From positions 1 to 64,000 of the IMG/VR virus record IMGVR_UViG_3300022562_002256: 64,000 nucleotides of DNA, one strand, 5' to 3'. A program made the position numbers and the translations under genes. The stretch is from a virus. Below the pieces are notes generated by a model. The model was not told where the DNA came from, ran no database searches, and worked only from the letters and a program-made list of their open reading frames with translations. Below, one piece after another: positions 1,174-47,775 of this stretch (position 1 is its first letter; every line of letters begins with the position of its first letter).

Positions 1174-1782
1174 TGTGGAGCCGTGATGCACACGTCGTGC
1201 CAGGACGTAGCCGTGCTGGGGCCGCCTGTTCGCGCCGCGCGATATCGACCAACCGGCGCAGCCATGCCCCGCACGCGGCGTGGAGCACGTCGGGGTCGGT
1301 GAGCAGGCTGGCCTGAGCGGCGCCCCACCTCAGCCACAGCCTGGCGGCGTTGAGACGTCCATCGTCGATGGCGCGGTCGACTCTTCGGATGGCCCACCGG
1401 AAGTCGTTCCACAGCGCTGCTTGCGGTCGAGCGCGTTGTTGGCGCTCGAAGTTAGGCGACCAGTTGGTGATGACGCCAACGGCCAGCGTGAATGGACGGA
1501 TACGATCGGACGATTGTCGCATACGCCAAATGTAACGCGACGGCGCCTGGTCGCAAGCATCGCTGTGGCCTTGACACGCGTCGCTGGCGGGTGTATGTTG
1601 TCGGTGTTGGTCGGTGGCCACAGCAACTCCCCCCAGGCGAGGTCGTCGACCAACATTGTAGCGCGGTGGTGTACTAGAGGCACACGAGGCTCATAACCTC
1701 GAGGACCGGGGCGGTTCCGGCGAGCGCTCCCAGTTGACAATGCACGTGAGTTGTCACCTGTGCCTGGATTGATCACCAGGCA

Positions 1783-1851
1783 GAGCCATTCGTCTAGGTA
1801 GGAGGACCAGCCAAGAATGGACTGAGCCGGGTGCGAGTCCCGGATGGCTCA
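1783..1851 (+). ncRNA. tRNA-like RNA lacking an anticodon loop
   Basis: 7-bp acceptor GAGCCAT/ATGGCTC, D-arm GTCT-AGGTAGGA-GGAC, T-arm CCGGG-TGCGAGT-CCCGG; anticodon arm CAGCCA-AGAA-TGGACTG has a 4-nt loop. Confidence 0.7.
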
Positions 1852-1963
1852 CGAGAAGCAGGTGTGGGCATCGCCTGGTGCACGGTGCCAGGAAGGGTTC
1901 AAAAGTGCCCATAGAGCAGCGCTTGCCGGTTCGGCTGCTCGCGTACATGAGGAACCGACACTA

Positions 1964-2022
1964 CGGGGCAGCAAGGACAGCACGGGTCATGCCGCGCGCG
2001 GGGTGCGATACCCCGTCCCCGA
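1964..2022 (+). ncRNA. degenerate tRNA-like RNA
   Basis: T-arm CGGGG-TGCGATA-CCCCG, 5-bp acceptor CGGGG/CCCCG, weak D and anticodon arms. Confidence 0.35.
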
Positions 2023-2163
2023 CTAGCCCAGAAGGGCTGTGGGCCGGTGGCGACAGGGCAGATGTCGACGTGAGAAGACCCTGCACCTCAAGCCAGCGAG
2101 ACATTCGCGCCCGGCGCCGCATGGTGGTGGTCAACGCGATCATCCGCCTCCCGCGGCTTAATG

Positions 2164-2228
2164 GGGTCCGTAGCTTAACGGCAGAGTCCGCGACGGCGGC
2201 GGTGCCGGTTCAATTCCGGCCGGATCCA
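2164..2228 (+). ncRNA. 65-nt tRNA-Ala-like RNA lacking an anticodon loop
   Basis: Acceptor GGGTCCG/CGGATCC with G3-U70 and A73, D-arm GCTT-AACGGCA-GAGT, T-arm GCCGG-TTCAATT-CCGGC; anticodon arm reduced to CCGC-GACG-GCGG. Confidence 0.75.
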
Positions 2229-2538
2229 CGACAGCCAGGCACAGGGACACGTGTGTGCCTGAAGGGACGGATAATCTGACGCGCCTAGGGCATGGCCGCA
2301 AGGCCGGAGAGTAGGGCACCGATGAAGGCACCGGCCGGTAGGAAAGACCTCGACGAAACCCTCCGTGGCACGTGAGCCACGCTCAAAAAACACCGCTGGC
2401 CCGGCGACCCTGGTGCACCGGGGTGAGGGCGACTGGCCTCGAGCACAAGGGTGCGGGCATGGGTGACGTTCCATGTCACGGGCGTGGCGCTATACCACGC
2501 GGGGCCACTGGCGATGGCGATTGCCGAGGAGGAACGCC

Positions 2539-3408
2539 GTGAAGTTGAGCGATGCGCAGATACGCAAGGCCACGGCGCACACGATGTGCCCGGGCTGCGG
2601 CCACCTCATCGAGAACGCCCCCGATGGCGGTGTCATGTGTACGAACACGGCTTGTCCGGCGTGGCGGCGTGTCCTTCGGGAGCCCGAGCCCCCCGGTCGA
2701 TCGCCATTCAACAACGGCATGGATGCGATCGAGCCAGTGGTCGATCGGGCTGTGGTTTCGGCCGTTCCTTCCTCTCCTACGGGGGTGATGGCATTTGAGT
2801 GCCCCGAGTGCGGTCAAGTTGCCAAGTCCGATCCGACGCGCCTTTTTCTTTTCATTGTGTGCCAAAACGCCAAATGCAGGATGACGTGGCGTTTGCCGCG
2901 AACAACCCCCACGTACAGGGTCACTGCCAATACGCGGGTGCTAGTCACATCTCCGCGTCACGAGCCGAGTGATGCCGAGCGTGCCACGGAACGACTCGCG
3001 GCCTCACCGCCGTCGTGGGCGAGCCCGCTTGGCTGGCGGTTGGCGGTGATGGCTGAGGCGGAGTGGTACGCGAAGAGGTTTGGGGGTCGCTTAGCGCGGG
3101 GCAAACGCGAGGTGAGCACTCTGCGGCGGGTTGTTGGGCTACCGGCAGGTGCCCAATACCGCGGCGAGGACAGCGACTTCTACCGCACGCTGCGCGTGTA
3201 CCACCGGTGTCGCCTAGAGGGCATGCCCCACGACGCGGCGAAAGAGGTGGCCGCCGAGGAGATGTGGCTGTTGGACAAGGGGTTCATCGACCAGTACGCG
3301 CGGGGGCTCGAAAAGCCAGCGCAGCGGCTGCAGCGTCCGCGGGCGAATGACGGGCGGCGGACGTTCACGTGCCGCCTTGTCGGTGACGGCAATGATACCT
3401 ACAGATAG
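2539..3408 (+). CDS. zinc-finger-containing hypothetical protein
   Basis: GAGGAGG SD before GTG 2539; four CxxC-like pairs. Confidence 0.65.
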   Translation: MKLSDAQIRKATAHTMCPGCGHLIENAPDGGVMCTNTACPAWRRVLREPEPPGRSPFNNGMDAIEPVVDRAVVSAVPSSPTGVMAFECPECGQVAKSDPTRLFLFIVCQNAKCRMTWRLPRTTPTYRVTANTRVLVTSPRHEPSDAERATERLAASPPSWASPLGWRLAVMAEAEWYAKRFGGRLARGKREVSTLRRVVGLPAGAQYRGEDSDFYRTLRVYHRCRLEGMPHDAAKEVAAEEMWLLDKGFIDQYARGLEKPAQRLQRPRANDGRRTFTCRLVGDGNDTYR

Positions 3409-3958
3409 GGTGGTGGCTCTACGGGTCGCCGATGTTAGGCGTCGGACGCTGCTCGCGCAGGAGGAGCGGCGGGCGGCACAACGGGCGTTCGACGGTCTCG
3501 GCGCAGCCATCCGATGGCGCGGACCGCTGGATGAGTTCTACGCGTGGCGTGACGAGATGCGACCGGTGGTCGCAAAGCGGATCGATGATCTGGATGCCCG
3601 ACTCCGCCGCATCAACCGCATTGAAGCCGCTTGGCTATCCAAGGTGGCGGCCCGGCCCGCGGCTGGACCGCCCGCCGCATGCGCCACCGCGTCGTTGCCG
3701 GAAAAGGACATCCATCCAGACGTCACAGCGGTCGTCGAGCGATTGAACCGGACCACCGCGTTGCACGCGGTCCTATCCACCGTCACGACCGAGCAGCGTC
3801 GGGCCGTGTGCGAGTATGCCGCTGAGGTGTGTGAGTCGCAGGGCGCGGACCTCCCCGACGACTTGTGCGAGCGCGACGAGTACCGGCGCGGCCAGAAGCG
3901 TGCTGCGCTCGACTGCGCCACGATGATGCGGCGGCTTGCAGAACCGAGACGGCCATGA
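3392..3958 (+). CDS. hypothetical protein
   Basis: Coupled to upstream ORF; helical composition. Confidence 0.55.
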   Translation: MIPTDRVVALRVADVRRRTLLAQEERRAAQRAFDGLGAAIRWRGPLDEFYAWRDEMRPVVAKRIDDLDARLRRINRIEAAWLSKVAARPAAGPPAACATASLPEKDIHPDVTAVVERLNRTTALHAVLSTVTTEQRRAVCEYAAEVCESQGADLPDDLCERDEYRRGQKRAALDCATMMRRLAEPRRP

Positions 3959-10555: not shown

Positions 10556-11139
10556 GCACCAGTGCGGCGTGCGGCGCGGGCAACCCTGACGTCGTGGCAT
10601 TCACTCGCGCCGAAGCCGACATGCTCCGGGAGCTACTGCGCTACACGCCGACGTTTAGCGAGGAGGGTGTCGAGTGGGCCAAGGGGGAGATCCAGGCAAA
10701 GTTGGTGGCGTTTCTGGAAGAACAGCCCCGCACGACCGTGGTCGACGATGGGCCGCTAAGCACCGACGAGGGGCGGCGAGACATTACCACCGCCAGCCGC
10801 CGGATTCTGTCACTGGACGCCGACGGCGACGCTGCCCCCCCGACCGAGGGCACATGGCGCCGAGCCACGGACTTCCTGGTGACGCTAGCGAGCGCAGTGG
10901 GTGACCCCATCCACCGGCTAGGGAAGCCGCGGATTTGGCGCGGGCCCGATCGCTCCATCGATCTCTACTGGGAAACGGGGGAGACCCAGCTAGTATTCAA
11001 TGTCTCCGCCGCCGGCGAGGCGACCTACTACGGGTCCGGGCCGACCTGGACAATCAAGGGCATGACGCGCGTCGGTCTCGTCGATGTTGACGCCGGCCTC
11101 CTGGAGGCAGTGCGCGGTTTAGCGGAGGGTGCGCGATGA
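10552..11139 (+). CDS. hypothetical protein
   Basis: Coupled ORF; C-terminal PRIWRGPDRSIDLYW module. Confidence 0.6.
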   Translation: MSTSAACGAGNPDVVAFTRAEADMLRELLRYTPTFSEEGVEWAKGEIQAKLVAFLEEQPRTTVVDDGPLSTDEGRRDITTASRRILSLDADGDAAPPTEGTWRRATDFLVTLASAVGDPIHRLGKPRIWRGPDRSIDLYWETGETQLVFNVSAAGEATYYGSGPTWTIKGMTRVGLVDVDAGLLEAVRGLAEGAR

Positions 11140-32509: not shown

Positions 32510-32529
32510 GATTTGTGCTCCTTCCGTAG

Positions 32530-32651
32530 TGGACGCGGCGGGATTCGAACCCGCAATAGCCTCTGTTCAGTTACGCGATGGTGAGTCGCGCAGCCGGAGG
32601 CACCGCGGTTTCTAGCCGCAGCGGCTTTGCCCTTCTAGCCATCTCACGCCC
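32530..32651 (-). tRNA. atypical tRNA: anticodon AGA (Ser), Ala-type acceptor (G3-U70, A73), 49-nt variable arm, no encoded CCA
   Basis: GGGCGTG/CGCGTCC acceptor, GGCT/AGCC D-stem, TGCGG-CTAGAAA-CCGCG, GCGGG-TTCGAAT-CCCGC. Confidence 0.8.
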
Positions 32652-47398: not shown

Positions 47399-47664
47399 CC
47401 CCACCTGTCTGCGGCACGCATTATGCATGAGTTCTCGACGTCGGCGTCGGCGACAGCCGACCGACCCGGTAGGCGGTGACCAATCCGCACCGGTCATCCC
47501 ACCCCGGCCTCTCCGGAGGCACCCACGTCCCGCCACCAGGCGGCCCTAACTGAGCCTCCCGCAAGGTCACCTCTCCCCGCCGTGGTGCGGCGAGTGGGCG
47601 ACCACCGGGAGCGACGACGAAGGAGCATGATGTCAGCGCGAAGCGATGTCGCCGCGCTGACCTT

Positions 47665-47747
47665 GGAGGGTTGCCCGAGTGGTCAAAGGGAGCAGATTGT
47701 AAATCTGCCGGCGAAAGCCTTCGGTGGTTCGAGTCCACCACCCCCCA
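47665..47747 (+). tRNA. tRNA-Tyr (GTA), no encoded CCA
   Basis: GCAGA-TTGTAAA-TCTGC anticodon arm, class II variable arm, GGTGG-TTCGAGT-CCACC; A3-C70 mismatch. Confidence 0.92.
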
Positions 47748-47775
47748 CCCAATTTCAATACCAACGGAGCACCAC

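Follow-up and report, generated by a model that had tools for sequence, protein, structure and literature searches.

A tRNA-shaped RNA with a stub in place of the anticodon arm in a gene-free stretch of a large tailed phage, and similar elements in other viruses

A stretch of about 900 bp without coding signal in a tailed phage from sediment harbors a 65-nt element, hereafter E3, that has a real tRNA fold with a shortened arm, that is, a virus-borne body recognized by the Rfam tRNA model in which the anticodon arm is reduced to a capped stem. Where the initial annotation had described a cluster of like copies, we find a mixed assemblage consisting of one clear stub (E3), one diverged tRNA shape (E1) and two fragments (E2 and E0, the latter missed in the initial annotation). 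In our assessment, there is about an even chance that the cluster specifies expressed, host-matured, non-decoding mimics of the upper half of tRNA (E3 and E1) accompanied by relics.

The window analyzed here covers the first 64 kb of an IMG/VR virus record that is 198,045 bp long, ends in terminal repeats of 144 bp and has a G+C content of 66%. The large terminase, the portal, the head protease and the tail sheath are all encoded in the record, which therefore represents a large tailed phage; the same DNA is present in marine and other sediment metagenomes. Between approximately 1560 and 2470, the GC content is flat across the three codon positions, and a clear coding signal is detectable in both flanks, on the minus strand to the left and on the plus strand from about 2470. 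All four elements are located on the plus strand within this stretch. Two open reading frames (ORFs) inside it, 1961-2143 (minus strand, called by gene callers) and 1878-2279 (plus strand), were considered and dropped as coding; no ORF inside the region has a Pfam match, and the translations resemble those of non-coding GC-rich DNA. In the left flank, the minus-strand ORFs 700-1191 and 1052-1621 overlap, and the coding GC3 signal passes from one to the other with a frame switch at about 1190-1200, so that either a single frameshifted gene or a pair of overlapping genes may be present; within 700-1621, gene callers call only 700-1173.

The match of E3 to the Rfam tRNA model RF00005 scores 41.4 bits (the gathering score being 29) and spans the full model (1-71), with 8 nt in place of the 13 modelled inside the anticodon arm. 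The acceptor stem (GGGUCCG/CGGAUCC), the D stem (GCUU/GAGU) and the T arm (GCCGG-UUCAAUU-CCGGC) are all fully paired. The arm consists of C26, CGC-GACG-GCG and G44, followed by a variable loop of normal length; thus, the 17 nt of a normal anticodon arm give way to a stub of 10-12 nt, in which a stem of 3-4 bp is capped by a GACG tetraloop. The nucleotides involved in tertiary contacts are present, namely U8, A14, A15-U48, G18, G19, U54, U55, C56 and A58. The cloverleaf has a predicted energy of -27.1 kcal/mol compared to -29.3 kcal/mol for the minimum free energy (MFE) structure, and a difference of about 2 kcal/mol is usual for tRNAs. CCA is not encoded. The acceptor carries G3-U70 together with A73, the identity marks of alanine tRNA, as read from the sequence only. 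The initial description of this element, with its 7-bp acceptor, D arm, paired 5-bp T arm, GACG loop and alanine marks, is accordingly borne out.

Several identities of E3 can be ruled out. The 7-nt anticodon loop, U33 and the anticodon itself are all missing, and so it is not a decoding tRNA. Nor is it a tmRNA, being a contiguous 65-nt sequence without a tag frame or pseudoknots and matching neither RF00023 nor ARAGORN in the -m mode. A YrlA-type Y RNA is rejected as well, given the normal tRNA arm order of E3 and a phage gene set with no TROVE gene. When the region, E3 and one look-alike from another virus (locus L025, see below) were compared with cultured phages by BLAST, no match was obtained, and a search of metagenome contigs for the E3 T-arm-plus-trailer pattern matched only a sigma54-activator gene, which is a false positive.

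Two other RNA features were noted in the phage (Table 1). Its sole canonical tRNA, tRNA-Tyr, shows, by eye, an A3-C70 acceptor mismatch and a 3' end that reads ACCC rather than ACCA. In addition, the ends of a 125-nt RNA-like element on the minus strand are aligned by the Rfam tmRNA model with 17.4 bits, far under the cut-off of 47, with 71 nt between them. This is the second alanine-type look-alike in the window.

Table 1. Coordinates of the tRNA-like elements and of the associated features
Feature	Position	Strand	Description
Sigma70-like promoter	1571..1599	+	TTGACA-17-TATGTT; directed into cluster; 10/12 matches
14-bp hairpin	1606..1654	+	at expected transcript start; fold of 1606-1750
E0, tRNA-Met-like relic	1659..1738	+	ARAGORN -ps calls tRNA-Met(CAU); one of 3 genome matches
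Hairpin	1758..1785	+	3' arm overlaps first 3 nt of E1; -15.4 kcal/mol, z-score -2.7
E1, tRNA-shaped RNA	1783..1851	+	7-bp acceptor, 4-bp D stem, closed 17-nt arm, T arm, discriminator A
E2, fragment	1964..2022	+	T-arm hairpin 1999-2015 (CGGGG-UGCGAUA-CCCCG) inside 5-bp closing helix
E3, 65-nt stub-arm tRNA look-alike	2164..2228	+	RF00005 match; alignment with L034, L089, L097
8-bp hairpin	2236..2261	+	just 3' of E3; -15.2 kcal/mol, z-score -2.4
125-nt RNA-like element	32527..32651	-	acceptor GGGCGUG/CGCGUCC (G3-U70, A73) and perfect T arm
tRNA-Tyr	47664..47751	+	50.9 bits
L025 look-alike copies (IMGVR_UViG_2529292852_000001)	350-410, 2052-2113, 3556-3610, 10701-10761	-	single-stranded linker replaces anticodon arm

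The acceptor (GAGCCAU/AUGGCUC) and the T arm (CCGGG-UGCGAGU-CCCGG) of E1 are perfect Watson-Crick helices of 7 and 5 bp, and the best D stem, GUCU/GGAC (1792-95 with 1804-07), encloses a loop that contains A14 and GG; the energy of the cloverleaf is -28.0 compared to an MFE of -29.4. The arm (1808-1824) has the canonical 17 nt. It folds into 6 bp with a bulged A and the loop AGAA or, alternatively, into 5 bp with one mismatch and the 7-nt loop AAGAAUG, from which U33 is missing. Only 2 nt make up the variable region, and position 55, within the T-loop UGCGAGU, is G. There is no match of E1 to RF00005 at E<=10, including in a 79-nt search, and ARAGORN with default settings calls neither E1 nor E3. 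E1 is tRNA-shaped, yet it is not a tRNA by profile; we regard it, with good confidence, as tRNA-derived. E1 and E3 with their flanks did not arise by recent tandem duplication, and a search of viral contigs with a 22-mer comprising the T arm and acceptor of E1 found nothing.

E2 contains a T-arm hairpin and a closing helix, and nothing else in it is tRNA-like; its fold is no better than those of shuffled sequences (z-score -0.8). E1 and E2 have the T-loop UGCGA in common, as had been pointed out originally, along with the unusual G55, and their T stems differ by one compensatory swap (50:64, C:G to G:C). In E0, only the hairpin 1685-1701 is convincing (CGAGG-CUCAUAA-CCUCG, with CAU at 1692-94 in a Met-type loop), whereas the acceptor and the T arm are degenerate and the fold (z-score +1.0) is again no better than shuffles. 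Neither E0 nor E2 matches RF00005 at E<=10; both are probable relics of further tRNA genes. The original proposal that these RNAs had lost the decoding loop alone consequently fits E3, with its otherwise pristine body, and not E1, which has the helices ascribed to it but retains a full-length arm and shows the reported AGAA loop in only one of the two folds, nor E2, the purported third copy, which amounts to a T-arm hairpin.

The position of the cluster relative to a promoter is suggestive of transcription. A promoter match of the quality of that at 1571-1599 is expected 0.1 times in shuffles of the region, and six sites of this quality are present in the whole genome compared to 1.75 in random genomes, so a chance origin at that spot is unlikely; the promoter may serve downstream genes only. 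No plus-strand intrinsic terminator is listed between the cluster and the rightward operon, and the hairpin just 3' of E3 is not such a terminator because it has no U-run. This hairpin and the one that overlaps the start of E1 (inverted repeats I3 and I8) share the motif CCTGTGCCTGG/CCAGGCACAGG, an 11-nt perfect inverted repeat (CCTGTGCCTGG at 1757-1767 and CCAGGCACAGG at 2235-2245) that flanks the E1-E3 segment and may form a long-range helix or serve as an operator. Compared to shuffled sequences, the spacers 2023-2163 and 2360-2475 are better folded, with z-scores of -2.4 and -2.7, respectively. Similar trailers follow E1 (1851-1862; A-CGAGAAGCAGG) and E3 (2228-2239; A-CGACAGCCAGG), and a stub element from another locus (L062) is followed by A-CGACGGCAACGG; this similarity may reflect a common processing context.

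Natural variants of the region were found in metagenomes. An independent sediment run (X2) carries positions 1631-2389 with zero differences, and the contigs of this run differ at 3 of the 163 positions on the left and at 18 of the 341 positions on the right; the block without differences may reflect constraint or a recombination mosaic. The same run contains a 156-nt record of a relative that is about 81% identical over 1744-1894. The differences listed fall upstream of E1, just after the discriminator (as two insertions of 2 nt), within the D arm and within the arm, where three indels remove the bulge of E1 and leave a perfect helix of 5-6 bp with a 6-nt loop; the E1 acceptor and T arm are without change among the differences listed (up to 8 others are unlisted). 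In another relative (run X5, a 222-nt record ending at 2229), of which only the 3' half at the position of E3 was read, the last 30 nt reveal another T arm; the T-loop is different and the 3' acceptor strand before 2229 is wholly different, implying that another tRNA or look-alike occupies this position. A 96-nt segment, 2360-2455, recurs in runs X2 and X5, and the contigs diverge after 2455 (loose ends AGTACAGCAGG...); it may represent a leader or promoter module, repeated or mobile, that phage genes or phages have in common. Among the runs listed as carrying the stretch, there are no RNA runs.

The search for more complete relatives of the phage yielded little. No useful homologues were found for the 311-aa protein encoded at 2473-3408, the 193-aa ChlI-domain protein or the 163-aa protein encoded at 700-1191, and the Mre11/Rad50-like protein led to no relatives. 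Of the contigs that carry cluster mates of these proteins, one (L124) is identical, two (L205 and L206) stop short of the tRNA-like cluster, and others have no DNA sequence attached. The best large terminase relatives are 59-65% identical, on contigs of at most 23 kb, and the nearest IMG/VR contigs (42%) are too distant. High-GC viral loci with stub elements are not related to the phage and gave only spurious tblastx matches. For the 193-aa protein with the ChlI/Lon-like domain (P0078; 2-547, minus strand), the only non-self relative, 45% identical, comes from a Polyangiales metagenome-assembled genome, a weak hint at a myxobacterial host.

Short-arm tRNA look-alikes are widespread in viruses. 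Using a pattern with E3-type D and T loops and a D-to-T distance 3-12 nt below that of normal tRNA, we detected at least 115 viral loci or contigs, compared to 67 loci in bacterial and archaeal genomes totaling 596 Gb; this looks like an approximately tenfold viral enrichment per base, an estimate made with the base count of the viral collection not given. Among the 76 distinct viral elements, 30 have all seven acceptor pairs and 24 have six of the seven; many reach 41-56 bits on RF00005 at a length of 55-65 nt. Some of these elements reside within large tRNA arrays and others are found alone. The most informative case is the syntenic pair of loci L054 and L065 in two related phages, in which a stub element is located between tRNA-Trp and tRNA-Met: both copies are 100% paired, and they differ by five double-sided compensatory changes, four of these in the acceptor stem, whereas the D arm, the stub and the T-loop are conserved. 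Comparison of the two copies shows directly that stub-arm elements, or at least some of them, are maintained as folds. These compensatory changes make selection for the acceptor and elbow half, as proposed in the initial annotation, a fair reading for this kind of RNA, but the pattern within the cluster itself also fits patchy decay, and selection on E3 would be assumed by analogy with the L054/L065 pair.

The CGACGG stub of E3 recurs in three other viral elements; across all four, pairing amounts to 97%, and in eight pairs both partners have changed. The same pattern was not found in cellular genomes, and its recurrence is only modestly significant (p of about 0.03 in composition-preserving shuffles). 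Only 6 of the 76 distinct elements have G3-U70, and hence alanine identity is not a trait of the short-arm kind; the apparent alanine mimicry of E3 may be a matter of simple descent from tRNA-Ala. A search of the full-text literature found no description of phage tRNA look-alikes with a truncated anticodon arm, and E3 fits a kind of phage RNA that has been little studied and, apparently, never described.

Three further observations were made on the viral look-alikes. First, in 4 of the 7 phage tRNA arrays inspected (L052, L054, L065 and L089), the stub element adjoins tRNA-Met(CAU); the cluster in the window is itself headed by the Met-like relic E0. Second, a look-alike of about 60 nt, with a linker of about 10 nt (AAGCGCGCGAU) at the place of the anticodon arm, is conserved in some 29 viral contigs (L009, L011, L018-L024 and about 20 more), 18 of which come from one large metagenome dataset (3300045988); its variants include U-G to U-A and A-U to G-U changes in stems. 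Third, the L025 virus record (180 kb) carries at least four copies of a 55-62 nt look-alike (Table 1), each of which ends immediately 5' of the Shine-Dalgarno-like sequence TTGGAGGA (GGAGG); ARAGORN calls no tRNA at this locus, and a HEARO RNA is located nearby. These copies look like tRNA-shaped punctuation before genes.

Among the known RNAs, the nearest precedent for E3 is the pair of T4 RNAs rnaC and rnaD (species 1 and 2), which are stable, cotranscribed with tRNAs and processed from a tRNA precursor. Like E3, these are small phage RNAs of unknown function from a tRNA region; in the T4 record, they are annotated beside tRNA-Arg. The rnaC molecule combines an acceptor-like helix with a perfect T arm, has no decoding arm and shows a weak, 17.5-bit match to a tRNA-clan model. 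The differences are substantial as well: the T4 RNAs are 139 and 119 nt long, contain extra body domains and show no sequence similarity to E3, which is a near-complete tRNA of 65 nt. Compared to canonical phage tRNAs and their pseudogenes, E3 passes the RF00005 threshold with the acceptor, D and T arms and the tertiary nucleotides, and the one-strand arrangement behind a single promoter resembles phage tRNA arrays, but the decoding features are missing from E3, and E1, E2 and E0 fail the model.

Other non-decoding tRNA-like RNAs are less close. The Y RNAs of the YrlA type from bacteria and phages, described by Chen et al. (2014, PMC4201824), are non-decoding, have a tRNA-like D/T elbow with tRNA modifications, are substrates of RNase P and CCA addition, and are encoded next to Ro60; the order of their parts is permuted (T arm, closed acceptor-like stem, D arm), and the ends exit via the Ro-binding stem. 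E3 differs in having the normal tRNA order and open acceptor ends, and a TROVE/Ro60 gene is absent from the phage. The t-elements of plant mitochondria are non-decoding tRNA-like folds in longer transcripts that are thought to direct RNase P and RNase Z cuts (Forner et al. 2007, PMC1920247) and thus set a precedent for elements that serve solely in cis, as cutting signals; they differ from E3 in being organellar and located at mRNA ends, whereas E3 is away from a gene border. The tRNA-like domain of tmRNA, which is charged by AlaRS (PMC3985003), combines G3-U70 and A73 with a canonical T arm and is devoid of an anticodon; in E3, the mRNA-like part, the tag frame and the pseudoknots are all missing, and a full D stem is present.

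The folds, the location of the cluster, the promoter match, the missing coding signal and the occurrence of selected stub-arm look-alikes in other phages are shown; transcription, processing, charging and any action in trans belong to the preferred reading, which would operate as follows. The region 1560-2470 would be a small, early-transcribed RNA operon read by the host RNA polymerase from the sigma70-like promoter, and E3, probably also E1, would be produced as discrete RNAs of about 65-70 nt. Both retain the stack of the acceptor and T arm, and E3 the full D/T elbow; because this is the half recognized by host RNase P, RNase Z and the CCA-adding enzyme, these enzymes would be predicted to excise the RNAs and add CCA. 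Neither would decode, E3 ending in a GACG-capped stub and E1 in a closed hairpin without U33, and we infer that they would act in trans, through proteins that read the upper half of tRNA. Host AlaRS could charge E3 via G3-U70/A73, and E2 and E0 would be relics of additional tRNA genes.

The main rival explanation, a real if minority possibility, is that the cluster is a decaying tRNA array, with four former genes behind an old tRNA-operon promoter and RNAs that have no job; E3 would be the youngest casualty, produced by one anticodon-arm deletion in a tRNA-Ala-like gene, E1 an older one, and E2 and E0 nearly gone. The Rfam threshold is reached by E3 alone, and the other three elements are each defective in a different part, with only the anticodon hairpin left in E0, only the T arm in E2, and G55, the minimal variable region and the missing U33 in E1; this looks like decay. 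By our own reasoning, a deletion confined to arm positions 30-40 leaves a paired stub, and since a single deletion of 5-7 nt in the anticodon arm often has this effect, the tidiness of the stub carries little weight. A single canonical tRNA implies that the phage is not investing in a tRNA set, and the frequency of G3-U70 among the short-arm elements is about that expected from tRNA-Ala ancestry. E0 and E2 fit the ordinary pseudo-tRNA pattern; E3, in which all helices are perfect and every nucleotide involved in tertiary contacts is retained, does not. Decay also fails to account readily for the apparently unchanged acceptor and T arm of E1 in the 81% identical relative, the flanks of which vary, and for the combination of the common G55 with a compensatory swap in the T stems of E1 and E2, which points to maintenance after duplication. 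Furthermore, a phage that keeps some 900 bp of dead DNA downstream of a good promoter would be unusual, and comparable stub elements elsewhere demonstrably stay paired.

A second alternative, which we consider quite unlikely, is that the elements are cis-acting cutting signals at which RNase P and RNase Z would shorten the long leader of the rightward operon, which starts at about 2473-2539, or free the structured spacers between the elements, the excised tRNA-like pieces being by-products, as in the case of the plant mitochondrial t-elements. The elements indeed lie between the promoter and the first plus-strand gene of the operon with no terminator intervening, the two spacers are better folded than expected, the copies in L025 directly precede Shine-Dalgarno-like sites, and t-elements are documented as end-forming signals (PMC1920247). 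However, E3 ends 310 nt upstream of the start codon at 2539, which is not a gene boundary, and although an acceptor and a T arm would suffice for cutting, E3 keeps the complete D arm and elbow.

The bare tRNA shape proves nothing by itself: a scan of the 198-kb genome for a 7-bp acceptor next to a 5-bp T stem that carries a TxCRA loop finds E1 and E3 only, and random genomes of the same composition give 1.1 matches each. Accordingly, the significance of E1 derives from its location 313 nt from E3, on the same strand and in the same gene-free stretch; for a random match to fall on the strand of E3 and no more than about 900 nt away from it, the probability is near 0.003. Of the 21 T-arm-like hairpins in the genome, 3 lie on the plus strand within 1827-2220, that is, in less than 400 nt, and one of the only two extra calls made by ARAGORN -ps in the genome, E0, falls in the cluster. 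Thus, 450 nt of one strand contain three T-arm hairpins together with the only two perfect acceptor-plus-T-arm shapes in the genome. Given this co-location, it is highly improbable that E1, E2 and E0 are hairpins formed by chance in non-coding DNA that is rich in GC, with E3 alone being tRNA-derived, notwithstanding the chance level of the shape, the 356 'tRNAs' that ARAGORN calls in the genome at a low threshold, and the folds of E2 and E0 that do not differ from shuffles.

Under the preferred reading of E3 and E1 as non-decoding mimics, the question is which role they could have. The gene content of the phage gives no support to the roles suggested in the initial annotation, namely nuclease decoys, titrators of EF-Tu or a synthetase, and aminoacyl donors: a CCA-adding enzyme, RtcB, a FemAB-type transferase, AlaRS and Ro/TROVE proteins were sought among the phage genes and none was found. 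An RNA without an anticodon loop would, in addition, be poor bait for nucleases that read that loop. A more specific and rather improbable proposal is that stub-arm RNAs are a dedicated phage device for counter-defense or takeover that would be matured by RNase P, RNase Z and CCA addition, charged, in the case of E3 with alanine via G3-U70/A73, and, being unable to decode, occupy or mislead a host reader of the acceptor and T arm; candidate targets are EF-Tu, a tRNA-sensing regulator, and a toxin or immune sensor that acts on aminoacyl-tRNA or the CCA end.

The tRNA genes of phages are usually explained by codon supply and, more recently, by escape from tRNA-cutting defenses. A whole tRNA body minus the decoding arm fits neither explanation. 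If the cluster reflects decay only, it is an ordinary dying tRNA array of little importance. If, however, these RNAs are functional, phages would use the tRNA shape for a purpose other than translation, the same question that has been posed by the stable T4 RNAs C and D since their discovery and is still unanswered. E3, with 65 nt, one feature removed and an alanine mark, is a clean, minimal example with which this question is directly testable.
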